This document shows, piece after piece, positions 1-12,014 of a DNA stretch of 12,014 nucleotides. The stretch's first letter is position 1, and the number at the start of each line of letters is the position of its first letter. Source of the stretch: Archangium sp. (GTDB lineage Bacteria; Myxococcota; Myxococcia; Myxococcales; Myxococcaceae); the NCBI GenBank assembly GCA_031367385.1, contig JANLPS010000040.1, positions 1 to 12,014 on the forward strand, given 5' to 3'. A model generated the notes under the pieces. That model searched no databases. It saw only the letters and a program-made list of their open reading frames with translations, and was not told the origin of the DNA. A program made the translations under genes and the position numbers.

Positions 1-718
1 GGGCCGTCGCACCGGCTCATCGCAGAAGCAGATGCCGATCAGCGGAGACCCCTTCATCAAGCTCGACACCGACGGCAAGACCTCGATTCACCTCGAAGAC
101 GTGCGCGCGTGGATCACCAGCTTGCAGGTGCCCGGCGTGGCTGGTGATGCAGACCCGACCGTGTCAGCCGCCAATCGCATCGACGCCACCTTCGTCGAGT
201 TCGGGCTGCGAGACCTGTTGGGCCTGACCGAAGACGACTTCTATACCGCCGCGTACAGCTACGGCGTGCTCGCCCGCTATGAGCGCAGTGACGATTTCTA
301 TGATCTGCGTTCGCCCGACCGCGCGCCTGGCCAGTGGGCTCCGAAGGGCCGCTTCACCTCGCTCGGAGGCGCCGCCGCCAGCATCAGCGCCCACGTCGAC
401 TCGTCGATCTCGACCAATTTCGTGCAGACCCTGACGCCGCTCTCGCAAGCCTGGTGCGGCATGGCGATTCGCAAAGCGGGCAACAAGGCGTTGTTCACCA
501 CCGGCACCGCGATGACCGGCGGCAAAGACCTGCCCACGCTGCGCTCGCAGCTGGCCGACTGGCACGCCTTGTTCTTGTCCGAGGCTCCGACCGAAGCCGA
601 CCTCGATGACGAGGTGAACGGCGTGTTCTTGCCGCTCGAGGCGAAGTCAGGCACCCAAGTCGCGTGGATCGGCACCTGCTCGTACTTCGTGCGTCACCCG
701 TTGTTCGTTTTCTACTGA
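1..718 (+). CDS. 5'-truncated hypothetical protein; probable partner of the downstream DUF1501-like protein
   Basis: The frame of ORF 32..718 is open back to the window edge (ggc cgt cgc acc ggc tca tcg cag aag cag ATG), so the true start probably lies upstream. GC3-rich codon usage. The C-terminus AWIGTCSYFVRHPLFVFY resembles the 'W..C.....HP.F..Y' ends I recall in proteins encoded just before DUF1501 genes. The stop is 12 bp before the next ATG. Confidence 0.75.
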   Translation, partial: GRRTGSSQKQMPISGDPFIKLDTDGKTSIHLEDVRAWITSLQVPGVAGDADPTVSAANRIDATFVEFGLRDLLGLTEDDFYTAAYSYGVLARYERSDDFYDLRSPDRAPGQWAPKGRFTSLGGAAASISAHVDSSISTNFVQTLTPLSQAWCGMAIRKAGNKALFTTGTAMTGGKDLPTLRSQLADWHALFLSEAPTEADLDDEVNGVFLPLEAKSGTQVAWIGTCSYFVRHPLFVFY

Positions 719-730
719 GGCCAAAGACCG

Positions 731-2296
731 ATGCGCCCTTCACGACGTGACTTGTTGTTGGCCAGCCTCGGTGCAACCCAGCTCGGGTTGTTGTCGAAGT
801 ACAACCTGCTGCAAAGTGGCTCGGCCTACGCCGCGCCGCCCACTGACCGGCCGACCAAGCTGCTCACCATCTACATCCCCGGTGGCATTCACCACGAGTT
901 CATCTGGGGCCAGTTTCCCGACGACAAGTTGGGCTTGTTCATGCCAACGCCCGACAAGCTGCCGAACGTCTTCTACGACAAGTCGATGGTCTCGAACCTC
1001 GACGGCAGCGGCAACGCCGAGTCAGACGCTCCGATTCGCCGCCTGCGCTCGCACATCACGTGGAACCCGAACGACCCGACCGACCGCACCACCGTCGCAG
1101 AGCCGAACAACAAGGGGTACGCCTGGGCCGCACCGATGTACCGGTTGTTCGACAACGTGGCGGTGATTCTCGGAGTCGATCAAGGCACTGCGGCCCACGA
1201 GAGCGGCATCGTGGCCTCGATGTGCGGCATCGCTGGCGCGAACTACGTGGTGCCGTCGATCGCGGCGCGCATCGCGAACCATTACCTGAGCGCCTTTCCA
1301 GATCGCGCGGTTCCGAACGTGACCATTTTAGGCTCTCCACGCGCGCCCGCGGTGACGTTGCCGGCGGTCGTCGACGCAGCGACCGTGGCGTCGATTGGTG
1401 ATTTGCAGTTCGCCCTCTCAGACCGGCGCGGCAACTGGGACGGACTTCGCGAGCGCCGAATGGTGCCCAACGTCGGCTTCGATGGCACCGTGAACGGCCA
1501 GGCCGAGCTCACCATCGTCGAAGAGGCGGTGTTGAAGGCCGTGCGCGGGCGCAAGGGCCGCGTGAACGTGGCCACCGACAACGCTTTGGCGAAGCTCCAC
1601 GACACCTACGCCGGAGTCTCGAAGACCATCGCGCGCAACGTCGTCGACCTGCTCGAGAAGACCGTGGGCGTCGAGAAGCTGCCGACCGACATCCCCTGGT
1701 GCCCGGGGCGTGGCCGCTTCGGGTGGCAAATCGGGTACGCCGATTTTTATGCGAGCGACTCGACCTGGGCCAACGAGTTCGATTTGGCACTGCGGTTCTT
1801 GAAGAGCGACTTGGCGACCAGCGTGACGTTCAAGATGACTCCGACGTTCGGCTTCGATTCGCATTTCTCGAACCCGTACCCGGGCCACAGCATTCACCTG
1901 CGCGGCGCGATGGAGTCGATCGCCCGATTGATGATTGAAATGAAGCTGACGCCGTCGAAGAGCCGGCCAGACCGTTCGTTGCTCGACGAGACGTTGGTCT
2001 ACGTCACCAGCGACTTCGGTCGCTCGTTTCCCATCAGCGGGGGCTCTGACCACAACCCGATTCACGCCGCGGTGTTGGCGAACGGCATGATTCAAGGCAA
2101 CCGCATGGTGGGCGGCATCGCCGACAATGGCTTGGGCGCTCCGATGGCGATTACCGAAGAATCGGGCGAAAAGTCGATGCGGCCCCCGAGCGCGCGCGAC
2201 GTGGCGGCGACCATCAGCGCGGTGATGGGGCTCACCACCAAAGAGGCTTTCTTGCCCGGCGGGTACGGCGTCGCCGACGGCATCGTGAAGGGCTGA
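731..2296 (+). CDS. DUF1501-family Tat-exported protein (521 aa; possible alkaline-phosphatase/sulfatase-like metalloenzyme fold)
   Basis: Twin-arginine signal MRPSRRDLL, ending near AYA-A. Family-typical motifs: LLTIYIPGG, GVDQGTAAH, GFDSH, LLDETLVYVTSDFGRS, GSDH, GMIQGNRMVGG, DVAATI. GAGG lies about 10 nt upstream of the ATG. Confidence 0.85.
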   Translation: MRPSRRDLLLASLGATQLGLLSKYNLLQSGSAYAAPPTDRPTKLLTIYIPGGIHHEFIWGQFPDDKLGLFMPTPDKLPNVFYDKSMVSNLDGSGNAESDAPIRRLRSHITWNPNDPTDRTTVAEPNNKGYAWAAPMYRLFDNVAVILGVDQGTAAHESGIVASMCGIAGANYVVPSIAARIANHYLSAFPDRAVPNVTILGSPRAPAVTLPAVVDAATVASIGDLQFALSDRRGNWDGLRERRMVPNVGFDGTVNGQAELTIVEEAVLKAVRGRKGRVNVATDNALAKLHDTYAGVSKTIARNVVDLLEKTVGVEKLPTDIPWCPGRGRFGWQIGYADFYASDSTWANEFDLALRFLKSDLATSVTFKMTPTFGFDSHFSNPYPGHSIHLRGAMESIARLMIEMKLTPSKSRPDRSLLDETLVYVTSDFGRSFPISGGSDHNPIHAAVLANGMIQGNRMVGGIADNGLGAPMAITEESGEKSMRPPSARDVAATISAVMGLTTKEAFLPGGYGVADGIVKG

Positions 2297-2303
2297 GCGT
2301 CTC

Positions 2304-5300
2304 TTAGTCGCACTTACTGTGTCTGCCGGCGTGGCAGTAGTTGCACGTCGCGGGGTTGGTCATCGTCGGGCACCGGGCCGCGTGATCGAACTTCCACGCG
2401 GTGGTGTAGGCGGCGCCAGTGGTGACCAGGCCGTTGCCCGCCGGAGACGCGTGACATTGCGCGCAGTCGGTCGGGTAGAAGTGATTCGGGTTGGCGACGT
2501 TGTCTGAGTTGCCGCTGTACGTGACTCGAATGGTGCCCAAGGTGAACGCGCGATCGTCACCTGCGCCGGCGGCGAGCGTGGTCGCCTTGTTCCACGGAGT
2601 GCCGATGAGGTCAGAGCCCGCTTCGTGGCACGAAGAGCAGCTGGTTTTGATCAGCGGTGAGAGGTGGTCGTACCCGATGGCTCCTTTGCCGCCGCTCGCT
2701 TGGGCATGGCAGCTGGTGCAGGTGTTCGCGCCAATCGCCGGGTGCGGCAGGTTGGCGATGTTGGCCGCGATCGTCGTGGTGTTGGCCGCCGGAGGGCTCG
2801 GCACCATGAACCCACCGACCGAGATGTACGTCGGTACGCCGGTGGCGCCGAGCCAGTTGGGCGACGCGCTGGTGCCGGTGCCCGGGTAGACGTGGCACGG
2901 CGTGCAGTCTTTAGTACCAGAGACGTTGGTGAAGGTGCTGTGATCTTGCTTGGTGTAGGCGGGGCCCGGCTTGAGTGCGAGGTGGCAGTTGCTGCAGCGC
3001 GCGGTCGTCAGGTTGCTCACCATCGGTGACTGGGCGGTGAAGCTCGCGTGGAGCTTGGCGATCGACCATTCTTTGCCTGTCACGCCTGCGACCTTCGAGG
3101 GCCCGACCTGGGTGTGGCAGGCGTTGCAGTCACGGCTGGCCACGTTCAAATCGGTGTGGGTCAGTTGGTCGTGCGTGCCAGCGGGTATGCCAGTGGTCGG
3201 GGTCGCGCTCGCCGTGGTCAGGGTCGTCGAGTCGGTCAACCCCGCTGGGAGGTTGTTATTGGTGCCCGAGACCGAGCCGAGACCATTCGTGAGCCCATGG
3301 CACCCCTGGCACGTCGTGAGCCCGGGCGCGTTGGAGTGCAGGGGCGTCAAGGTGCTCCATGCTGCTCCACTCTTCTTGGCATCAGCCAGGTGACAGGCAG
3401 CGCAGTCTTTGCCGACGATCGAGGCCGCGGCGTGGCTGACGTACTGCGCTTGGTTGCTCGCGGTAGCGCCCTGGGTCAGCGTGTATTGCGTCGCGCTCGC
3501 AGTGGTCTTCGCGGGGTCTGAAGCCGAGTGACAGTCGAGACACTGGGCGGGTTGGGTGCCGAGCGAGGCGTGAAATTGGCCGGGCTTGAAGAGGGTCGCG
3601 CTGATCGGCGTGGTGGAGGCCTTCGCGAGGGCGGTGCTGTGGCAGGTATCGCAGCGTTGAAAGGTGAGCAGGCTCGAGCGGTGCGCCATCAGCGAGCCGG
3701 TGGCGTTCGGCAGATCTGACTTCGCTGGCTCGGCCATCAACGGGTAGTGGCAGCTCGTGCAATCGGCCGGCACCGCGGTGGCGATCTTCGAGTGAAACAC
3801 GCCGTTGCCCCACGTCGTGCCGGCCGCTGCGTGACAGATGGCGCAGTCGATGTCGGCGACTCCGCTGGCCGAGGCACCGGCGATCATCACCGGCGCGACG
3901 AACGTGGCCGCGTGGTCCATCGGCTGGAGCGATTGGGTGGCCACTCCGGCGTCTGACTTCTCGACGATGCCCGCGGGCCGCATCTGCTGATGGCAGTCGT
4001 TGCACTTGGCGGGCTGTGCGAAGGGCACCACCGGGCCGCCGAAGGTCGCTGAGTACGAGGTGAGCGCCGAGTGAAACTTGCCGCCTGAGTACTCGGTGAC
4101 CGTGCCGGCGGTGTTGGTGTGGCAGTGCCAGCAGGTCGCATTGTTCGGCATGTCCGTGGGCCCCGCGTTGAGCGCGGCGGGCACCTGCGCAGAGACGTGC
4201 AACATGCCGTTGTAATAGCGAATACCCGGGTTCACGGTGATGCCGGTCACCAGCATCGTGGTGCTCGAGCGGTTCAGCTTGAGCTCGTTCAGGTTGATGA
4301 ACTCGTCGACCGACGCCGCCAAGACGTCGCCGGGGTAGACGCCGGCATCGCGCCAGTCTCCACCAGGCAGCGTGCCAGACGCGTTGAAGTAGCTCGTGTA
4401 GCGGTTGGCCTTGGCGGTGGCCTGGTGGCAGGCGAAGCACTCGCCGCGGCCGTTGATGGCGTGATCGAAGCCGAGAAGGGCGGTTACTTGCGCGGGGCTC
4501 AGCTTCGGGGCCAGGGCGAGGTCTGGCCGCTGGGTGCTGTGGCACGAGACGCAGGCGTTGGCCGAGAGCGTGCCCGGGCCATGCACGAAGTTGCCGCCGA
4601 CCCAGGTCTTCACGTCACTGTGGCAGACGGCGCAGTCTTGGCTCGCGCCGTGGGTGATCGCTGCGCTGTTGGTGACCGCATCGAAGGGCTTGCTCTGCCA
4701 GGTGGCGCTCGCCCAGCTGGTGGTCGAGGTCGGTCGCTCTCCGTCATGGCAGGTGGCGCAGCTGGTCGGTGCGGTGACGGTCTTGTGAAAGGCCCCACCG
4801 GCCCACGAGGTGGTGCCGAGGTGGCAACTGGCACAGTCACCCAGTGTTTCGTCGGCCGTGTGATCGAACGCGACCCCGGCCGGGAGCTTCGCGGCCGGCG
4901 CGGTGAGCACGGAGGTTGGCCTCGAATTCGCGTGGCAGTCGAGGCACGAAGCGGGCTGAGCGGCGGCGAGGGCCGAGTGGTACCGCACCGTGCCCGCGTC
5001 AGCGGTGGTCGACCAGTCGGCGCCGACCGAGGGCGTCGCGTGACAGGTCGCGCAATCGGCCTTCAGCACGGGGGTCGTCGAGGCCGCGTTGTTGACCCAC
5101 TCCACCGCTTCGTGACGCATCTCAGGGCTGGGAGGCACCCGCACCGGCGCGGTCGCGAAGGCGCCGACGAAGCCCTTGGGCGCGGCGTTGACGTGGCAGT
5201 CGTTGCAGGTGGCGGGCTGGGGCAGCTTCAGCGCGTCGAGCGACGAGTGAAACACGCCAGGAAAGAACGCGCCCTGGGTGGCGTTCGGGTGGCAATTCGC

Positions 5301-5963
5301 GCAGGTGCTGAACGCCGCGGCGGCGACCGACGTCGTGGTGTGGCTCATCTCAGACGGCAGTTTCTGCACCTGCGGAGTGACCCGCGAAATCGAGGTGCCT
5401 ACGAAGCTCGGTGAATACGCGGTGACGCTGACGTCATTCGTGGCGTCGTGTGAAAGCCCGGCCGGCCCTCCGGCGAGCGCGTCTTTCCAGTCGTGCGTGT
5501 TGTGACAGGCGCTGCAGTCGGTCGCGCCAATTTCTCGATGGGTGAAGCCCGCTTTCGGCAGCGCCGCGAACGCCGCGCCCGCTTGGTGGCAGGTCGCGCA
5601 CCCACTCTCGATGCCCGCGTGATCGAAGGGCTCTTTGGCGCCGACGGGGTGGCACGAGTAGCAGGCCGCGCTGGTGTACCCGTAGTCGGCCACCGAGCGG
5701 TGCAGGGGGTCGGTCACCGCTTGCTCGTGCGCGTGGCAGCCCAGGCAGCTGAAGTCGGCGAAGCTCGCAGCGGTGGGCGAGTGACACGATTCGCAGCTGA
5801 TCGTCTCGCCGGCCGCGGTGACCTGACCCACCGCGTGAACGCCGTCAGCGAGTGGAAACCAGGTGTGGTTCTTGTTCGTCACGCCGGTGCTCGCGGGCGT
5901 GGGCCTCGGCGTGCACGCGCCGAGCAGCAAGATCACCCCCACTCGGAGAAGGCGCATGGTCAC
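2304..5963 (-). CDS. Giant multiheme c-type cytochrome lipoprotein (1219 aa, 29 CxxCH motifs)
   Basis: Manual count gives 29 CxxCH motifs (first CESCH, last CNYCH), nearly all preceded by a His that could act as distal ligand. Lipoprotein signal MRLLRVGVILLLGA-C17. Thr/Ala/Ser-rich, as in surface proteins. The start is GTG 5963 or ATG 5957. Confidence 0.93.
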   Translation of the reverse strand: MTMRLLRVGVILLLGACTPRPTPASTGVTNKNHTWFPLADGVHAVGQVTAAGETISCESCHSPTAASFADFSCLGCHAHEQAVTDPLHRSVADYGYTSAACYSCHPVGAKEPFDHAGIESGCATCHQAGAAFAALPKAGFTHREIGATDCSACHNTHDWKDALAGGPAGLSHDATNDVSVTAYSPSFVGTSISRVTPQVQKLPSEMSHTTTSVAAAAFSTCANCHPNATQGAFFPGVFHSSLDALKLPQPATCNDCHVNAAPKGFVGAFATAPVRVPPSPEMRHEAVEWVNNAASTTPVLKADCATCHATPSVGADWSTTADAGTVRYHSALAAAQPASCLDCHANSRPTSVLTAPAAKLPAGVAFDHTADETLGDCASCHLGTTSWAGGAFHKTVTAPTSCATCHDGERPTSTTSWASATWQSKPFDAVTNSAAITHGASQDCAVCHSDVKTWVGGNFVHGPGTLSANACVSCHSTQRPDLALAPKLSPAQVTALLGFDHAINGRGECFACHQATAKANRYTSYFNASGTLPGGDWRDAGVYPGDVLAASVDEFINLNELKLNRSSTTMLVTGITVNPGIRYYNGMLHVSAQVPAALNAGPTDMPNNATCWHCHTNTAGTVTEYSGGKFHSALTSYSATFGGPVVPFAQPAKCNDCHQQMRPAGIVEKSDAGVATQSLQPMDHAATFVAPVMIAGASASGVADIDCAICHAAAGTTWGNGVFHSKIATAVPADCTSCHYPLMAEPAKSDLPNATGSLMAHRSSLLTFQRCDTCHSTALAKASTTPISATLFKPGQFHASLGTQPAQCLDCHSASDPAKTTASATQYTLTQGATASNQAQYVSHAAASIVGKDCAACHLADAKKSGAAWSTLTPLHSNAPGLTTCQGCHGLTNGLGSVSGTNNNLPAGLTDSTTLTTASATPTTGIPAGTHDQLTHTDLNVASRDCNACHTQVGPSKVAGVTGKEWSIAKLHASFTAQSPMVSNLTTARCSNCHLALKPGPAYTKQDHSTFTNVSGTKDCTPCHVYPGTGTSASPNWLGATGVPTYISVGGFMVPSPPAANTTTIAANIANLPHPAIGANTCTSCHAQASGGKGAIGYDHLSPLIKTSCSSCHEAGSDLIGTPWNKATTLAAGAGDDRAFTLGTIRVTYSGNSDNVANPNHFYPTDCAQCHASPAGNGLVTTGAAYTTAWKFDHAARCPTMTNPATCNYCHAGRHSKCD

Positions 5964-5971
5964 CAGAAGAG

Positions 5972-6002
5972 GAGTGGCCCACCACAGCCGCCAGCAGGCA
6001 GC
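5972..6002 (-). promoter_or_regulatory. Candidate ECF-sigma promoter (GCTGCCTG-N16-GCCACTC) upstream of the 29-heme cytochrome
   Basis: The minus strand reads GCTGCCTG ctggcggctgtggtgg GCCACTC and ends 8 nt before GTG 5963. The same two boxes with the same 16-nt spacer occur upstream of the sigma gene (8311-8341). Confidence 0.65.
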
Positions 6003-6011
6003 CGCCTCGAA

Positions 6012-6587
6012 TCAATGCGAGGCGACACAAACCCCGCGAAGACAGGCATCTTCGCCGTCGCAATCGGCGTTGACCAGGCATCGCACGCAGGTGCCGGTGC
6101 TGTGTTCGCATCTGGGCTGACCACCGCCACAGTGGGTGTCGAGCACACATGCGACGCATGCGCCGATGGTGAGATCGCAGTGCCGCCCGGTGCAATCGTT
6201 GTCACCTTCGCAGACCGAGCACACCGATCGCACGCACCCGTGCCGAGACCCGGGGCATTGCGAATCTTCGCTGCAAGTCTTCGCGCAGGCCTCGGTTGCC
6301 AGAACGCACGATTGGGGAGCGCTGCACCCCAGCGAGGCGCCGCAGGGCACGCAGCGGCTGGTGAGGGTGTCGCAGGCAGGCGTCAGCGCGCCGCAGTCGG
6401 TGTCGGCTCGGCACTCGACGCACGAGCCGGTGGCGTTGTCGCACACGAGCGGTGACGCGCATGGGGCGCTGCTCGAGCACCGCCAACCGCCTCCGTCTTG
6501 GAGCGCACCGCCATCGCCCAGCTTTTCGAAGTCGATTCTCAGCGTGTTGCACGACGTGAGCAGCACCAGCCAAACCAGGAGTCTCAT
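6012..6587 (-). CDS. Cysteine-rich repeat lipoprotein (191 aa, myxobacterial-type 4-Cys repeats)
   Basis: Lipobox LLTS-C13, then a DGG linker, then 28 Cys arranged as 7 tandem units of roughly C-x5-C-x4-6-C-x4-6-C (e.g. CRADTDC, CSEDSQC, CEGDNDC, CVLDTHC, CLVNADC). ATGA overlap with the upstream gene at 6584-6587. Confidence 0.85.
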   Translation of the reverse strand: MRLLVWLVLLTSCNTLRIDFEKLGDGGALQDGGGWRCSSSAPCASPLVCDNATGSCVECRADTDCGALTPACDTLTSRCVPCGASLGCSAPQSCVLATEACAKTCSEDSQCPGSRHGCVRSVCSVCEGDNDCTGRHCDLTIGACVACVLDTHCGGGQPRCEHSTGTCVRCLVNADCDGEDACLRGVCVASH

Positions 6588-7666
6588 GGGGTCTCGAGCA
6601 CCGCGCGTTCAGCTTCGGCGCGGCCGACTCCTCGGGGAAATTGGTTCAAGTATTGAGTGGCCGCGGCGCGGGCCGCTTCAGGTGCGCGTGGCTCGAGCCA
6701 CCGAATTTTTTGGAGCAAGGCGGTCTCGGCGAGCGACCCGCTCGGGTACTCCCGAAGCAGCTGGTCGAGCCGGGTGATGGCCTCTGCGAAGCGGCCTGCC
6801 TGTTGGGCCGACTGGGCCTGGCTGTAGAGCTCGTTCTGGCGGCTCAGCGGGTCGACTGGCGTCGGCTCGACGACCGGGGGCGGTGCCGGCGGCGCTTCGA
6901 CTCGGCCCGTGCCGCGCGCTGGCGTTACCTTCTTCACGGGCGCCACCACGGGCGCTGGCGTGGGAGGCGGTGTGTGTGGCTCGGCGCACTGCTCAGCAGA
7001 AGGCCAGCGCTCATCACCATGCAGCGTGACGGAGCCGGCCTGCGTCGCGATGGTCACCTCTCCTGAGACGACTCGTACTTCGGTTTGGCCGCGGCACCCG
7101 GCAGCAGGTGAGAGCCAGAACTCGCCCTTGTTCGAAGTGACCAAGACGTCGCTCGTCTCGAGGCTCAAGGGCGCAGCATCGACGGTCACCTCTGCGAGCA
7201 CTGCGCCGCGCAGCACCCGCACCAGGGCTGGCCCGGCGCCGCGTTCAACCTCAGACGATGGCTGCACATGCAGCGAAGCCCTCGCCACCAACACCTGCAC
7301 GGTGCCATTCGAGCCGGTCTTCAGGCGAGTGCCCGAGGGCCACGACGCGCCCGCGATTGGAGACTCAGCGGCGCCTCGAACCGACACGATGCCGTCGTTG
7401 AGCGGCTGCACGGCGGCGATGGGCTCGAGCACGGTGGGGGTGGGGCGTTGACGAAGCCCGGTGGTCAACGCGACGCCGGCCATGGCGATCAACACCGCGG
7501 CGGCGGCGACCCAGATCTGCCGGGGTACTGCCCGTCGAGCAGGCACGGTGGCGCGCTCCATCGCGGTGATGGTGGCGAGCCTCGCCTTGGGCGTATCGGG
7601 CAGCGGCTGCACCGCCTCGAAGGCCTCGCGCAAAAGCGCAGCGGCTCGCTCTTCACCGGGGCTCAT
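6584..7666 (-). CDS. FecR-like transmembrane anti-sigma factor with Pro-rich linker and C-terminal TPR domain (360 aa)
   Basis: Short cytoplasmic N-terminus, then a TM helix (IWVAAAAVLIAMAGVAL). FecR-like beta region (GTRLKTG, VRVLRGAVLAEV, TEVRVVSGEVTI). Pro-rich linker. TPR-like end (LDQLLREYPSGSLAETA, YLNQFPRG). ATGA-coupled to the ECF sigma gene at 7663-7666. Confidence 0.85.
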   Translation of the reverse strand: MSPGEERAAALLREAFEAVQPLPDTPKARLATITAMERATVPARRAVPRQIWVAAAAVLIAMAGVALTTGLRQRPTPTVLEPIAAVQPLNDGIVSVRGAAESPIAGASWPSGTRLKTGSNGTVQVLVARASLHVQPSSEVERGAGPALVRVLRGAVLAEVTVDAAPLSLETSDVLVTSNKGEFWLSPAAGCRGQTEVRVVSGEVTIATQAGSVTLHGDERWPSAEQCAEPHTPPPTPAPVVAPVKKVTPARGTGRVEAPPAPPPVVEPTPVDPLSRQNELYSQAQSAQQAGRFAEAITRLDQLLREYPSGSLAETALLQKIRWLEPRAPEAARAAATQYLNQFPRGVGRAEAERAVLETP

Positions 7667-8301
7667 TGCAGTCGCTCCGAGAGCAAAGCGGTGAGCTCGA
7701 CGTCTTTCTCGATTCGGGCCCGCACCTCGCCCCGCCCGCGCACCAACCGGGTCTGCGCGTTGGCGACGGTGATGCCGAGAATCTCAGCGATTTCTTTCAG
7801 CTCGAAGCCGTGCACGTCATGCAGCAGGTAGACCTCGGCGTGCTTGCCATTGACGTGCTCGAGGTGGGCCAGCACCCGCTCCACGGCTTCCCGGTGCACG
7901 GTCGTGGTGAGCGGCCCCGCCGCCGGAGTGGCCGGGTCGGGCGCGGTTTGCTCGAACGGAGACGCAGCGAAGCGGCGCTCGAGCTTGTCGCGGCGCATGC
8001 GCTGGTAGGCGGTTCGCGCGGCGATGGTGGCGGCCCAGGCATCGAGGCTGCGAATCGCGGGGCGGGCTTTGAGCGAAACCAGCAGCTCGACGAAGGTCTG
8101 CTGCACCAGATCTTCGTGGTCTGCGCCTCGCGCAGTGAGGCGCCGAATGGTCTTGCTGATCAGCGGGCGCAGACGGTCGTAGAGCGCGAGCGCGCTGCTG
8201 GCTTCACCCCGAGCGACCGCGTCGATGAGCGACTGGTCGTTCATCACCTCTCCGACCAGGCGGAGGGGTGCTCGAATGGCGGCGGTGCACAGCAGCAGCA
8301 T
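7663..8301 (-). CDS. ECF-family sigma-70 RNA polymerase sigma factor
   Basis: Region 2 (DHEDLVQQTF, DAWAATIAARTA) and region 4 (VYLLHDVHGFELKEIAEILGITVANAQTRLVRGR). The start is uncertain. ATG 8301 is preferred because GTG 8319 lies inside the putative promoter. ATG 8244 (preceded by GGAGAGGTG) is an alternative. Confidence 0.93.
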   Translation of the reverse strand: MLLLCTAAIRAPLRLVGEVMNDQSLIDAVARGEASSALALYDRLRPLISKTIRRLTARGADHEDLVQQTFVELLVSLKARPAIRSLDAWAATIAARTAYQRMRRDKLERRFAASPFEQTAPDPATPAAGPLTTTVHREAVERVLAHLEHVNGKHAEVYLLHDVHGFELKEIAEILGITVANAQTRLVRGRGEVRARIEKDVELTALLSERLQ

Positions 8302-8310
8302 CAACCACTC

Positions 8311-8341
8311 GAGTGGCACGAACCGGGCTCCATCAGGCAGC
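8311..8341 (-). promoter_or_regulatory. Candidate autoregulatory ECF-sigma promoter (GCTGCCTG-N16-GCCACTC)
   Basis: The minus strand reads GCTGCCTG atggagcccggttcgt GCCACTC and ends 9 nt before ATG 8301. It matches the motif at 5972-6002 in both boxes and in spacing. ECF sigma factors commonly autoregulate. Confidence 0.65.
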
Positions 8342-8348
8342 GCAGAGG

Positions 8349-9191
8349 TTAGAAGGCGCCAACGTACCCAACTTCGAGGCGTGCGGTCCCAGGGCCGACC
8401 GTCCCCACTGCATTTCCACCCACATTGACCTGCAGGGTGGTGGGTGTGAGCGCAAAGGCGCCGAGCGCTTGCAGCGCATGGGCGTGGGCCAACCAGACCC
8501 GGGCGCCGACTCCAACGCGGGCGACTGGGAGCCAGGTGGTGACCTGCTCGGCGCGATGGCTCAGTCGCCAGGCGGTGACGCCGCCCCCGAGGGTGAAGAC
8601 CGGGGTGACGGTACGGTCAGGCACCTGGGCAATCAGCTCGAGCAGAGCGGCGGGCGCGAGCAGCTGTGCTTGAGAGGGTTGAACCAGCGCGACCTCGAGG
8701 GCGATGCCGATGCTCAGCCACGAGACCAGCTTTCGCTCGAAACGAAGGGCCAGCCCACCGCCCCAGGAGCCCGACGGCACATCGAGCGCCACCAGCGGCG
8801 CGGCGACGAAGGCCCACGCGGTGGGCTCGAGCGCCGGCGTGACGGGCTGCGCGACGGCGGGTGGGTTCAACGCCGCGAGATCTTCGTCGCGTTGGTGCGC
8901 CATGTTGGCAACCGCGAAGGCCACCGCGGTCGCGCGTTGGGCGAGGGCATCGGTGGGCGAAAAGCGGAGCACGCGGCGGAGGTCACCGGGCACGCGCGCG
9001 GTGTGGAGCAACAGCTCGGCCTCGGCGCCATCGGCAGAGAGCGTCACCCAAGCGACCGAGCGGCCGGGCGGAGCGGTCTCCCCGATGCTGACCTCAGGCA
9101 CCCCTTCAGGAAAAGCGGCGGGCAGGGCGCGCTGCAGCTCACCTGAGAAGGGGCCCGCGAGCTCTCCAACCAGCAGAATCAAGAGTGTCAC
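8349..9191 (-). CDS. Hypothetical protein with C-terminal small (about 8-strand) outer-membrane beta-barrel
   Basis: ORF 8349..9227. GTG 9191 (VTLLILLVG) is the likely start because it avoids overlap with the upstream gene. The C-terminal half has alternating amphipathic strands (GGGLALRFER, WLSIGIALEV, ARVGVGARVW) and ends LEVGYVGAF, with a terminal Phe as in BAM substrates. Confidence 0.7.
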   Translation of the reverse strand: MTLLILLVGELAGPFSGELQRALPAAFPEGVPEVSIGETAPPGRSVAWVTLSADGAEAELLLHTARVPGDLRRVLRFSPTDALAQRATAVAFAVANMAHQRDEDLAALNPPAVAQPVTPALEPTAWAFVAAPLVALDVPSGSWGGGLALRFERKLVSWLSIGIALEVALVQPSQAQLLAPAALLELIAQVPDRTVTPVFTLGGGVTAWRLSHRAEQVTTWLPVARVGVGARVWLAHAHALQALGAFALTPTTLQVNVGGNAVGTVGPGTARLEVGYVGAF

Positions 9192-9216
9192 TCGCGGTAG
9201 CTCACTCCAGGTACCC

Positions 9217-10890
9217 TTACAGCTCAATCACCAACTGCGCGGTGGCTTGCGTTGAGCTCCTGGTGAGCACCTCGGTCGAGACCGCGCCCGCCAAGCCGGT
9301 TCGCCACGAGCCGTACAGCCGACCCAGCAAGAACGAGGTCAATCGCGCGTCGATCGCCAAGCTGACGCCGAGCTCATTGGCGCCCAGCGTCGGAGTGGGT
9401 TGCTGAAACCACGCCCCCCGCGCCTGCACCCGAAACCGCGAGCTCGGAGCGACCGCGGCCGCGAGCGACCAGGTTCTCCCGCGCAGCCAGCCGAGCTCTT
9501 CTTGGTACCCCGCGGTCACGCCGATGCGGCCCTGCCAGGTGCGCCACGAGAGCTCTGGGCCCATGAAGCTCTGAAAGAGTTGCCCTTGAATCTCCCACGC
9601 AAGGCCGGCGCGCGCGGCGAGGGTCAGGCTCGGCAGCAGGTCGAACGAGACGTCGGTCGAGGCGTGCACGCTGCGCGTCACCGGCAAGGGAGCTCCCACC
9701 TGCGCCACCTCGAGCAAGGGGTTGCCTCGATACCGGCCGCTCAGGTGCAGCCGAAACCGATCGCTCGGGGTCAGCCCCAAGTCGAGCGTGCCCAGCTCGA
9801 GAGAAGCCGGAGCCTGCTGCGCCGGCGCCACCGCGAACTGCGCGCCCACATGCGCGTCGAGCACCCGCGAAACCCACCCGTGCATCGCGGCGCCCGCTTC
9901 GAAGCGTGACCCGACGCCAGGCCGCAACGCCCAGCCCGCGCGGGCTTCGCCTTGAACCACCGACGATGTGCTGCCCAGGCCGTCGACCCATCGGCCCATG
10001 CCGTACGCGCCCGCCGCCCACTGACCGAGCGAGACGCCGGTGGTCACCGCATCGGGGAGCAGGCCTCCGTAGAGGCCCACTTCAGCGCTCGCCCGTGAGT
10101 AGCCGATTTGCGCGCCGTCGATCGCCAGCAGCCCTGGTGTGTACCTCGGCCGCACTCGCCCGACCCGCACCACCACCGGAGCCCCCTCGGGTTGCCAGCT
10201 CACCTCGAGCTGACGAACGACGCCTTGCAGCACGGTCGTTCGTGGCAGCCGGTTGTTCGAGGGCTTGCGCGACCAGACCAAAAGCGACGCGTCGGCGCTC
10301 ACCGCGAACCCGGCGCCGAGCCGCTGATAGAGCGAGGCGTCGACTTGCTCGAGCTGAAATGAGCCCTGGGCCGAGCCCAAATCAGCGAACAGGTGATGCG
10401 CCAGGCTGACCCGCAACCGGCTGCCATCGGCCCGGGCTGCAGGGCCCGATTCATCGAACTCCACCAACGCCCACGGAGCACCCATCACGCTTGCTCGCTG
10501 CGCCTCAAGCTCTGCCGCCGAGGGCAGCGCGGGGAGCCCGGCGAGTGCTGCCGCGGTGACCCTGTCGACCTGGGCGCGATCGCCAGCGCGAACGCCCTTC
10601 GCGTGACACACGGCCGCGTGCTCAGAGAGCTGAGCAATTTCGCAGGTCGCCACCGGCTTCGAGGCCCGGGTGATGTTCACCTTCGACGACAGCGTGAGCC
10701 CATCGGCCTTGCCCCGATCCAAGTACACCGAGTCGGCGGTCACGTAGCTGACCTTGCCTTGCCCGACGTCACTCGGAGGCTTCACCAGCGACCACCCCGC
10801 GCGCTTGGCCGGTGCAGGCGGGCGCGTGACGTGCGCCGGCTTCGCCCCGGTTGCGACATACGCCACGAGGAGGGCCGCGGAGATCATCAT
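9217..10890 (-). CDS. Outer-membrane beta-barrel (porin-like) protein with N-terminal FlgT-C-like domain (557 aa); candidate porin of a porin-cytochrome complex
   Basis: The real start is ATG 10890 (MMISAALLVAYVATG, signal-like), which overlaps the stop of the decaheme gene (ATGA). The N-domain GKVSYVTADSVYLDRGKADGL...VRAGDRAQV resembles FlgT C-terminal small barrels. The remainder is many amphipathic beta strands (VVVRVGR, IDGAQIGY, EVGLYGG, RFRLHLSGRY, RIGVTAGYQ, RFRVQARGAWF). Confidence 0.8.
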   Translation of the reverse strand: MMISAALLVAYVATGAKPAHVTRPPAPAKRAGWSLVKPPSDVGQGKVSYVTADSVYLDRGKADGLTLSSKVNITRASKPVATCEIAQLSEHAAVCHAKGVRAGDRAQVDRVTAAALAGLPALPSAAELEAQRASVMGAPWALVEFDESGPAARADGSRLRVSLAHHLFADLGSAQGSFQLEQVDASLYQRLGAGFAVSADASLLVWSRKPSNNRLPRTTVLQGVVRQLEVSWQPEGAPVVVRVGRVRPRYTPGLLAIDGAQIGYSRASAEVGLYGGLLPDAVTTGVSLGQWAAGAYGMGRWVDGLGSTSSVVQGEARAGWALRPGVGSRFEAGAAMHGWVSRVLDAHVGAQFAVAPAQQAPASLELGTLDLGLTPSDRFRLHLSGRYRGNPLLEVAQVGAPLPVTRSVHASTDVSFDLLPSLTLAARAGLAWEIQGQLFQSFMGPELSWRTWQGRIGVTAGYQEELGWLRGRTWSLAAAVAPSSRFRVQARGAWFQQPTPTLGANELGVSLAIDARLTSFLLGRLYGSWRTGLAGAVSTEVLTRSSTQATAQLVIEL

Positions 10891-11807
10891 GGGCCGTTGA
10901 TCATCGCTTGGTGGCACTCGGCGCACTTCGCATCTCGGCACTGATACCCCTGCACCTGGGCGTGCAGCGCATCGGTGGGGAGCGTGCCCTGCGGCCCTGC
11001 GCATTGGTGCGTGTGGCAGCCGGAGCACGACACGGTGCGAGACGCGCACGCGTTGCTCGCGCTCAAGGGAATGCCGAGCCCGTGGCATTGCTCGCAGGTC
11101 ACCGCGCTGTGCGCGCCAGAGGTGATGACGAAGCAGCTGTCGTGCGAAAACGTCGGGGTCACGAAGCGGGCGGGCTTGAAGCGAATGGCGCTGTGGCACG
11201 ACAGGCAGTCATTGCCGAAGCCGAGGCGGGCGTGGTCGATGCCGGTGCCAGTGGTCTTCATCACGTCACCCTGGTGGCAGCCCACGCAGGCGACCGCGGC
11301 TCGGGTGAATTTTCGCTCGCGTGCGTCGGCATGGCACTCGAGGCAGGGCAGGGCCGCGTGGCCTCCCAGCAGGGGGAAATTGGTGCGCCGGTGGGCTTCG
11401 GGTGACTGCTCGCTCTCCCAGGTGCGCTCGTCGTGGCAGCTCTCGCAGCGCTGACCCAGGTCTCCGCCGTGGGCATCGACATGGCACCCGCTGCACCCGC
11501 GTGGCACCGGCGCGTCGAAGGTCGTCACGTGGCACTGCTTACAGCTGACCCTCGCGTGCTGACCCTTGAGCAAGAACCCGGTCGCGTCATGGTTGAAGCG
11601 CACCTGGCTCCAGCCGCCGGTCGAGTGACACGCGCCGCAGGCCGTACCGCCGTGACCACGTGGTGTGACGGCCTTCACGTTGACAGCCGGGCTCAACGTC
11701 AGCGACTTGGGAGCATCGGCGGCCTTCACCACTGGAGGTGCAACCGCAAACGCGCCGGTCGCGGCCAATGACACGCCCAGCACAGCAAGGACATGCCGAG
11801 TGCTCAT
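10887..11807 (-). CDS. Periplasmic decaheme c-type cytochrome (306 aa; cytochrome c3/c7-like repeats)
   Basis: Sec signal MSTRHVLAVLGVSLAATGAFA. Ten CxxCH motifs: CGACH, CKQCH, CSGCH, CESCH, CLECH, CVGCH, CLSCH, CEQCH, CSGCH, CAECH. Repeated 'H..t.F.L.G.H....C..CH' units. ATGA overlaps at both ends. Confidence 0.93.
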   Translation of the reverse strand: MSTRHVLAVLGVSLAATGAFAVAPPVVKAADAPKSLTLSPAVNVKAVTPRGHGGTACGACHSTGGWSQVRFNHDATGFLLKGQHARVSCKQCHVTTFDAPVPRGCSGCHVDAHGGDLGQRCESCHDERTWESEQSPEAHRRTNFPLLGGHAALPCLECHADARERKFTRAAVACVGCHQGDVMKTTGTGIDHARLGFGNDCLSCHSAIRFKPARFVTPTFSHDSCFVITSGAHSAVTCEQCHGLGIPLSASNACASRTVSCSGCHTHQCAGPQGTLPTDALHAQVQGYQCRDAKCAECHQAMINGP

Positions 11808-12014
11808 GGCGCGAACCCCTCGAAGGCGCCCTTGTGAAAGTCGGAGTGGCAGCCTTCACACGTTCGAGGCGCTCCGAGGAAGCGTTGCACGCGCTTCGCC
11901 CCGGCCACGGCGACCGAAGGGTGACACCGCTCACAGGCCACCTGCGCATGTTTGCCCTCGAGCACGAAGTCGGTGAACGGGGCCTGGTGCATGAAGCCGC
12001 TCGCGGGTCGAAAC
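11804..12014 (-). CDS. C-terminal part of a multiheme c-type cytochrome (5'-truncated by the window edge)
   Basis: The frame is open to the window edge (FRPASGFMHQAPFTDFVLEGKHAQVACERCH...CEGCHSDFH). Two CxxCH motifs and the same F.L.G.H repeat as the decaheme. Its stop overlaps the decaheme start (ATGA, 11804-11807). Confidence 0.88.
   Translation of the reverse strand, partial: FRPASGFMHQAPFTDFVLEGKHAQVACERCHPSVAVAGAKRVQRFLGAPRTCEGCHSDFHKGAFEGFAP

Follow-up and report, generated by a model that had tools for sequence, protein, structure and literature searches.

A 12,014-nucleotide stretch of Archangium sp. DNA (GenBank assembly GCA_031367385.1, contig JANLPS010000040.1; hereafter the window, i.e., the whole stretch analyzed, which is the entire contig C193 of an 8.0-Mb genome, G000, in 562 contigs) raises two questions: whether its cluster of an outer-membrane barrel and multiheme cytochromes is an extracellular electron-transfer conduit of unusual composition, and whether the extracytoplasmic function (ECF) sigma/anti-sigma cassette lying inside the cluster is its dedicated regulator, as a preliminary description of the sequence had proposed. 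The window is only the outer half of the gene set, and the inner half lies on another contig (C348) of the same genome. The conserved part of the complete cluster is best read, from motifs and gene content, as a variant of the PCC3 type, and it is fairly probable, on sequence and model grounds, that it acts as an electron wire linking NADPH in the cytoplasm with the cell surface and an extracellular acceptor. Compared with this NADPH-linked core, the embedded regulator, a feature at the level of the genus whose link to the conduit is suggestive, appears to matter less.

The conserved core and its distribution

Three co-directional genes of the window had been described as encoding 29, 10 and 2 CxxCH motifs, and both these counts and the gene order were reproduced (Table 1); shuffling of residues gave a mean of 0.14 such motifs and a maximum of 3. 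The total of 41 holds for the window but not for the full cluster, which has about 59, since the two-heme piece is the end of a 20-heme protein. The 69-aa piece matches residues 520-587 of a 20-heme homolog of 587 aa, and C348 (locus L032) carries the gene of a 742-aa membrane protein followed by a cytochrome gene with 15 CxxCH motifs that runs off the contig end and aligns to residues 1-468 of the same homolog, in which the stretch between the two pieces holds three further motifs. The two contigs are joined by a 6046-bp contig of sequencing run X4, whose bases 1-1067 correspond to window positions 10948-12014 and bases 1224-6046 to C348 positions 25-4847 (the two matches were taken as one record on the basis of the same run, length and depth), leaving a gap of 156 nt, or 52 codons.

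Within Myxococcota the barrel is carried by at least 130 of 401 genomes (a tally that includes one unpublished genome, G204, counted nowhere else) and, among the relatives, by 14 of 40; it was commonest in one family, f7 (50/64). A barrel profile matched 1350 representatives at E 0.001. The decaheme cytochrome matched 468 stretches in species-representative genomes, the best 80 of which include Anaeromyxobacter oryzae Red232 (L166), Myxococcus sp. RHSTA-1-4 and a metagenome-assembled genome of Bdellovibrionales; many named decaheme loci belong to Anaeromyxobacteraceae. Gene content was compared over 156 stretches (75 picked by score and diversity from the barrel searches, the best 80 decaheme stretches, and L103), which were reduced to 109 loci by dropping seven stretches without a barrel match and merging duplicates. 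Among these 109 barrel loci the 20-heme gene is present in 101, the membrane-protein gene in 96 and both in 94. Many loci have an additional 6-26-heme gene before the barrel.

The 557-aa protein, previously taken for a large beta-barrel, was indeed modeled as a barrel of 22 strands with a small N-terminal beta domain (pLDDT 82.6, pTM 0.65). It has no Pfam match and no credible NCBIfam match, 30 homologs likewise have none in NCBIfam, its Atlas neighbors are unnamed clusters from Myxococcota and Gemmatimonadota, and a profile search of PDB sequences with it returned no MtrB. A fold search yielded only generic barrels, with transporters and ushers as the top structural matches (best Z 17.4, rmsd 6.2, 349 aligned residues, about 10% identity) and MtrB at rank 27 (Z 14.1). 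The N-terminal domain, which carries the invariant pair C83/C95, may tether the barrel in the periplasm; the region encoding it (10564-10761, minus strand) gives a weak TsaP match (E 0.042).

Modeling of the barrel together with the decaheme, from paired alignments of 89 rows, gave scores of 0.74-0.76 compared with 0.00 for three controls, above a mark that is reached by 116 of 157 solved pairs and by 2 of 215 mismatched pairs. The runs share at least 70% of their contacts, with a partner pLDDT of at least 68, and the contacts touch 20 of the 22 strands. Because they often fall on alternating residues of the strands, the decaheme is predicted to lie in the lumen, the best-defined contacts being those of the heme-4 region with the periplasmic ends of strands 11-12 and of the heme-5 region with the outer ends of strands 1, 2, 21 and 22; in this model hemes 1-4 would sit in the lumen and at its periplasmic side and heme 5 at the outer mouth, while the C-terminal hemes (6-10) would protrude outside. 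Nine histidines outside the heme motifs are invariant or nearly so among 89 decaheme homologs. A fold search with the heme-free decaheme model (pTM 0.52) gave nothing significant, MtrA being the top row (E 2.0, TM 0.17), a result that speaks neither for nor against an MtrA-like fold. The protein is a decaheme as first described, but the complex model favors a barrel-threading subunit over a free periplasmic cytochrome.

The large cytochrome of the window is Ala/Thr/Ser/Gly-rich, with 42 aa per heme, and its 29 CxxCH motifs are kept in 104 of the best 120 homologs; across 60 aligned homologs, 31 histidines outside the motifs reach a conservation of at least 80%. These spare histidines, like the nine of the decaheme, fit wires of bis-His hemes. 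The protein passes the threshold of PF22113 (MtrC-like heme domains) as a repeat-level match. The earlier view of it as a surface lipoprotein of the conduit still seems likely with regard to exposure, but it is not a fixed part, having been found within the fetched stretch at only 28 of the 109 loci. A 2472-aa relative with 57 CxxCH motifs is encoded convergently to the barrel gene at L026:2212-9627.

The 742-aa protein of the inner half combines an N-terminal anchor with three domains, 2[4Fe-4S], FAD/NAD(P)H and a ferric-reductase-like membrane domain (family matches to Fer4, Pyr_redox and, weakly, Ferric_reduct), and its nearest solved relatives are Bdr/TrxR/FNR proteins (E 2e-39). Invariant in all nine aligned sequences, of which the relatives are about 730-770 aa long, are W544-H548-H562 and W710-H714-H728 (that is, WX3HX13H twice), a YR...R motif, and a single TGxxG; both WX3HX13H motifs together with [ST]GxxG occur in 86 of 89 homologs, with Thr instead of Ser in the nine aligned. 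The invariant YR...R suggests a preference for NADPH, by analogy to thioredoxin reductase. When the membrane domain was sought in shorter forms, most matches were pieces on short contigs, without useful names.

A split form of the cluster was seen on the Emticicia oligotrophica plasmid NC_018749.1 (L190; Bacteroidota), with ccsA, a 281-aa membrane protein, an NAD(P)-binding protein, 23- and 40-heme cytochromes and a 538-aa barrel homolog. The stand-alone, PCC3-type 281-aa protein is homologous to the fused membrane domain (E 4e-43). Divergent neighbors of this plasmid cluster are a distant ECF sigma gene (21% identity) and an annotated outer-membrane barrel.

Relation to known conduits and proposed electron path

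The proposal that the conduit is built from protein families other than MtrA, MtrB and MtrC is supported by the family scans, the barrel model and the locus survey. Membership in the Mtr/Mto group was rejected: there is no MtrB-type match at E 0.1, the barrel has 22 strands compared with 28 predicted for MtrB (PMC4245776; here and below, literature statements come from the accessible parts of the cited papers), the decaheme scores 13.8 bits against DmsE/MtrA TIGR03508 (cut-off 192.2), and the 29-heme protein 34.7 bits against OmcA/MtrC TIGR03507 (cut-off 209.3). The cluster resembles MtrCAB/MtoAB in a decaheme placed, by the model only, inside the barrel and in an optional surface lipoprotein cytochrome, and differs in having its own inner-membrane flavoprotein and 20-heme wire.

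Although not Mtr, a cluster of this kind has already been described, since its inner half makes it PCC3-like. PCC3 comprises a porin, a periplasmic cytochrome of about 21 hemes and an outer cytochrome of 10-35 hemes (PMC5566968, PMC9900912), and two WX3HX13H motifs along with SGXXG are given for the inner-membrane proteins of PCC3 and PCC4 (He et al. 2017, PMC5566968). The present cluster similarly has a porin with a 20-heme, probably periplasmic cytochrome and 10- and 29-heme cytochromes, a membrane domain with two WX3HX13H motifs and an SGXXG-like motif, and repeat-rich, Ala/Thr/Ser/Gly-rich cytochromes; the likeness is one of motifs, heme numbers and gene content. On the other hand, its membrane domain is fused to the 2[4Fe-4S] and FAD/NADPH domains (742 aa compared with about 300 aa for the stand-alone form), it has three cytochromes, its host is a member of Myxococcota (Proteobacteria for PCC3), its barrel bears an N-terminal beta domain, and in one genus it contains an ECF cassette. 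Plasmid searches found no PCC3 from a named iron oxidizer, and matches on Methylophaga and Alteromonas plasmids were set aside as other membrane-protein loci in which no large cytochromes are annotated.

With 22 strands and 10 hemes, the barrel and its partner also fall within the range of the Geobacter Pcc conduits such as OmaB-OmbB-OmcB (18-22 strands and an adjacent partner of 5-14 hemes; PMC4245776). The regulators adjacent to the latter are OrfR/OrfS, so that a regulator beside a conduit has a precedent, but not one of the ECF type. Library scans gave only weak ExtN/ExtO repeat matches, far below cut-off. Identity with the published Anaeromyxobacter Pcc was rejected, as that system has two genes and 12-14 hemes (Shi et al. 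2014, PMC4245776) and the present one four to five genes with a 10-heme partner. The inner-membrane protein recalls NADPH oxidases (NOX)/ferric reductases (FRE) and the TrxR-type ferredoxin-NADP reductases (Bdr/YpdA, FNR) in combining a two-heme HX13H membrane domain with a flavin NAD(P)H domain; however, its flavin domain has the TrxR fold, is N-terminal and carries a fused ferredoxin, and its likely output is the 20-heme cytochrome rather than oxygen or soluble iron. A literature search, with most subscription journals outside its coverage, yielded no account of this cluster and none of an ECF cassette inside a conduit.

In the path that these parts suggest, electrons would pass from NADPH to the FAD of the TrxR/FNR-fold domain, then to the two [4Fe-4S] clusters, to two b hemes of the ferric-reductase-like membrane domain, to the 20-heme periplasmic wire, and to the decaheme, which would carry them through the barrel and, where the 29-heme lipoprotein is present, on to its surface hemes; the end point might be extracellular Fe(III), humics or another acceptor. 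An outward direction would follow from the established chemistry of NOX/FRE enzymes. Since outward flow moves negative charge outward, no energy would be conserved, which points to disposal of surplus reductant or reductive mobilization of metals rather than classical respiration.

Several points weigh against this NADPH-fed wire. The complex score may partly reflect likeness to the solved MtrAB arrangement, the complex model is heme-free, and its alignments lay outside the calibration of the score. A hydropathy scan of the C-terminal membrane domain placed three helices over threshold compared with five expected. PCC3 itself has been described as functionally unverified (10.1101/2025.02.27.639646; PMC9900912), and for this membrane domain He et al. 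suggest a quinone partner rather than NADPH (PMC5566968).

A quinone-linked respiratory conduit, as proposed in that work for the same motifs, would agree with the concentration of the barrel in family f7 and with the many named decaheme loci in Anaeromyxobacteraceae, which include Fe(III) reducers (PMC4245776), as well as with the occurrence of window DNA in sediment metagenomes of two studies. Nevertheless, we consider it unlikely: a flavin/Fe-S domain fused to the membrane domain (adjacent to it in Emticicia) is not needed by a quinone-only model, and multiheme loci occur elsewhere in the genome, among them a second barrel-decaheme set on contig C212. The second set (C212 positions 1-5535; labels by eye) contains a barrel-like protein of 412 aa, followed by a cytochrome that the contig end truncates (at least 10 CxxCH motifs), as well as a monoheme cytochrome and a divergent decaheme protein of 1025 aa.

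An assimilatory role, in which the system would be a bacterial counterpart of yeast Fre1 and would reduce extracellular Fe(III)/Cu(II) for uptake under a FecR-type switch on metal starvation, seems quite improbable. A ferric-reductase-like domain fed by NAD(P)H, and an anti-sigma factor resembling FecR in view of the link of FecI/FecR to iron uptake (PMC7826278), would suit it; however, about 59 hemes per set would be a costly iron outlay for a starved cell, neither the window nor the loci listed gene by gene contain a transporter gene, and ECF267-type systems are described as lacking a TonB-dependent transporter (PMC7826278). Least probable is a system that is no conduit, with the cytochromes storing electrons and the barrel serving to export or assemble them. 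The capacitor idea has been published for large Anaeromyxobacter cytochromes (PMC2330069), and transporters and ushers are the barrel's top structural matches; against this reading, the model puts the decaheme in the lumen, with controls at zero, and those matches are generic.

About one third of the sampled Myxococcota genomes encode an unnamed barrel family together with fixed 10- and 20-heme cytochromes and with a flavoprotein through which NADPH could be coupled directly to the cell surface. The scanned porin profiles miss this barrel, and surveys using such profiles would therefore likely undercount extracellular electron transfer in soils and sediments. With a cultured carrier (A. oryzae Red232) and a model-supported two-protein core, the question is directly testable.

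The ECF sigma cassette

The four cassette genes lie between the barrel and 29-heme genes (Table 1). The sigma factor was identified as such by Sigma70_r2, Sigma70_r4_2 and TIGR02937 matches over cut-off, and its N-terminus is common to the ortholog in G001, a genome of the same genus. For its partner, described earlier as a FecR/TPR anti-sigma factor, one transmembrane helix and TPR-type matches were found, but the FecR match of the window protein itself is below detection; the orthologs in G001 (27.1 compared with 24 bits) and G014 are over the FecR cut-off. The first cassette gene likely encodes a small barrel, as proposed, but its start is most likely GTG 9191 (280 aa) rather than TTG 9227, because orthologs begin there and a second strain lacks one base at 9192. 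Atlas clusters of this 280-aa protein are unnamed Myxococcota proteins, the nearest named one being an OMP beta-barrel (0.88, a lead only), and it is kept in stand-alone cassettes at 38-48% identity. The Cys-rich lipoprotein, which travels with the cassette, matches TraA Cys repeats weakly. In architecture the cassette resembles ECF267 as that group is described. As in ECF267, described from Sorangium and Chondromyces (Casas-Pastor et al. 2021, PMC7826278), it has a myxobacterial ECF sigma factor and a FecR-like, TPR-bearing anti-sigma factor at +1 without a TonB-dependent transporter; unlike ECF267, it includes the small barrel and the Cys-rich lipoprotein, and the accessible ECF267 description gives no cytochrome context (PMC7826278). 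With regard to the protein kinases of ECF267 neighborhoods, one lies next to the cassette in G014, G405 and G347, and none in the window.

The cassette had been regarded as a built-in part of the conduit, which the survey does not support: only one of the 109 other loci (G001) has it embedded, with 8 kb or more of sequence behind the barrel available in 65 of them, and the nearest cassettes are stand-alone ones. At 15 loci the barrel is followed by the 29-heme gene, one of them with the cassette in between; an anti-sigma homolog occurs anywhere in the stretch in 7 of 109. Close relatives of the sigma factor were found at 26 places in 20 of 190 genomes of the family, and the 24 other than those of G000 and the G001 ortholog were read: four adjoin the cluster in other positions, nine lie beside a tri- or tetraheme gene, seven beside giant Cys-rich proteins, and four have none of these neighbors, two of the latter being cut by contig ends. 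The closest relatives (62-63%) have giant Cys-rich lipoproteins rather than cytochromes beside them. Close cassettes occur in five genomes (85-100% complete) in which no barrel was found, the decaheme profile giving only weak matches in two; no 29-heme gene was found in the three of them that were searched for it (G264, G313, G284). As one of 15 loci has the cassette between the barrel and the 29-heme gene, and close cassettes occur in barrel-less genomes, the cassette is likely a self-contained module whose embedding in the conduit is a later, recent insertion in this genus. GC content at third codon positions gives no clear separation (0.77-0.84 for the cassette compared with 0.83-0.86).

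What speaks against the cassette being a mere passenger is that 13 of the 24 related sigma genes lie beside cytochrome genes. These 24 rows, however, are kin gathered with the window's own gene and stand for few events, not 13.

The cassette begins 25 nt behind the barrel gene and ends 54 nt before the 29-heme gene; with this spacing and no terminator called before it, co-transcription with the conduit genes is likely. A promoter and terminator scan found no sigma-70 sites and four terminator-like sites compared with 7.0 expected, so that the one at 6046-6033 was dismissed as chance level; upstream regions of the cassettes, compared by eye only, showed no common motif. By way of its anti-sigma factor, the cassette probably responds to a cue in the envelope, and it may, tentatively, drive the 29-heme gene.

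That it is a dedicated, integral regulator controlling the terminal cytochrome appears rather doubtful. In favor of such control are the common strand and tight spacing, the intact state of the cassette in G001 and in a second strain (contig covering 5000-10512), and the related cassettes that adjoin the cluster elsewhere (G270, G014, G405, G347, L125, L143, L155), whose sigma factors are spread over about five positions of a tree in which many branches are weak, with nine more beside tri- or tetraheme genes; moreover, none of the 12 other FecR loci of the genome has a CxxCH frame within 6 kb. Against it stand the single embedded case, the giant Cys-rich lipoproteins beside the closest relatives, the three genomes with cassettes and neither barrel nor 29-heme gene, the common descent of the supporting cassettes, and the promoter motifs, which are reported as not conserved in ECF267 (PMC7826278). 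A broader version, in which one ECF/FecR-TPR lineage is a dedicated sensor of envelope redox state or extracellular acceptors, was several times taken up by outer-membrane cytochrome systems (the present conduit as well as Cyc2-like cytochrome-barrel loci), and in this case turns on the 29-heme surface extension of a wire that is fed by NADPH and independent of quinone, must be called unlikely; if true, the lineage would be a trans-envelope signaling system controlling extracellular electron transfer. The embedded cassette is in any case a natural case for asking whether surface signaling controls such a wire.

Among the related cassettes, those at L093-L096, L100, L104 and L105 stand alone beside giant proteins with 82-175 Cys. 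Sister sigma cassettes at L107 (745-3026), L098, L106, L108, L197 and L201 are divergent beside a tri- or tetraheme gene and the gene of a 400-aa protein, which has one N-terminal CxxCH, no NCBIfam match and a homolog on contig C357 of G000 (39%), and which resembles Cyc2-type cytochrome-porin fusions. In genus g6 (L021, L033, L036, L038-L040, L042) a different ECF sigma gene directly follows the barrel, and at L021 the gene after it encodes a caspase-like domain.

Gene layout, assembly and neighboring genes

All cluster genes of the window are co-directional. The ATGA coupling of the barrel and decaheme genes noted before was seen at their junction, and the same overlap occurs at three others (20-heme/decaheme, sigma/anti-sigma and anti-sigma/Cys-rich lipoprotein). 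Signal sequences, on which the predicted cytochrome locations rest, were judged by eye, as were the lipobox-like motifs LGAC15 and LTSC13. Cytochrome c assembly genes are present in the genome (two PF01578 matches).

Table 1. Genes of the cluster within the window, in order of transcription
Feature	Position	Strand	Remarks
C-terminal end of the 20-heme cytochrome, last 69 aa (2 CxxCH)	11804..12013 (open frame)	-	likely periplasmic
Decaheme cytochrome c, 306 aa	10887..11807	-	10 CxxCH; predicted to pass through the barrel
557-aa outer-membrane protein, N-terminal beta domain (44-109) and predicted 22-strand barrel	9217..10890	-	structure model
280-aa protein, first cassette gene, likely small outer-membrane beta-barrel with N-terminal extra domain	8349..9191	-	Atlas lead
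ECF sigma factor, 218 aa (alternative start ATG 8244)	7663..8319	-	Sigma70_r2, r4_2, TIGR02937
Single-pass anti-sigma factor, 360 aa: FecR-like domain, Pro-rich linker, TPR/BamD-like end	6584..7666	-	
Cys-rich lipoprotein, 191 aa, 29 Cys, 0 CxxCH, last cassette gene	6012..6587	-	
29-heme lipoprotein cytochrome, 1217 aa, optional, likely surface-exposed	2304..5957	-	

Misassembly of the window was ruled out by the contig of the second strain, from a sediment run, which crosses the barrel gene, the cassette and the beginning of the 29-heme gene and shows 41 differences besides a single gap. Window DNA is contained in six sequencing runs of the two studies, five of them labeled sediment, three of which are possibly the source of the assembly; no RNA run is listed among them, which says nothing about expression.

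In G001 the 20-heme gene (L016:3775-5476) is broken over three frames, either by sequencing error or as a pseudogene. On C348, an integrase-like frame (label by eye; L032:6215-7729) lies about 2.5 kb upstream of the membrane-protein gene. At the other end of the window, 2-718 and 731-2296 (plus strand) form a convergent pair unrelated to the cluster, consisting of the last part of a gene continued on C271 (overlap of 141 bp) and a gene for a DUF1501 protein.

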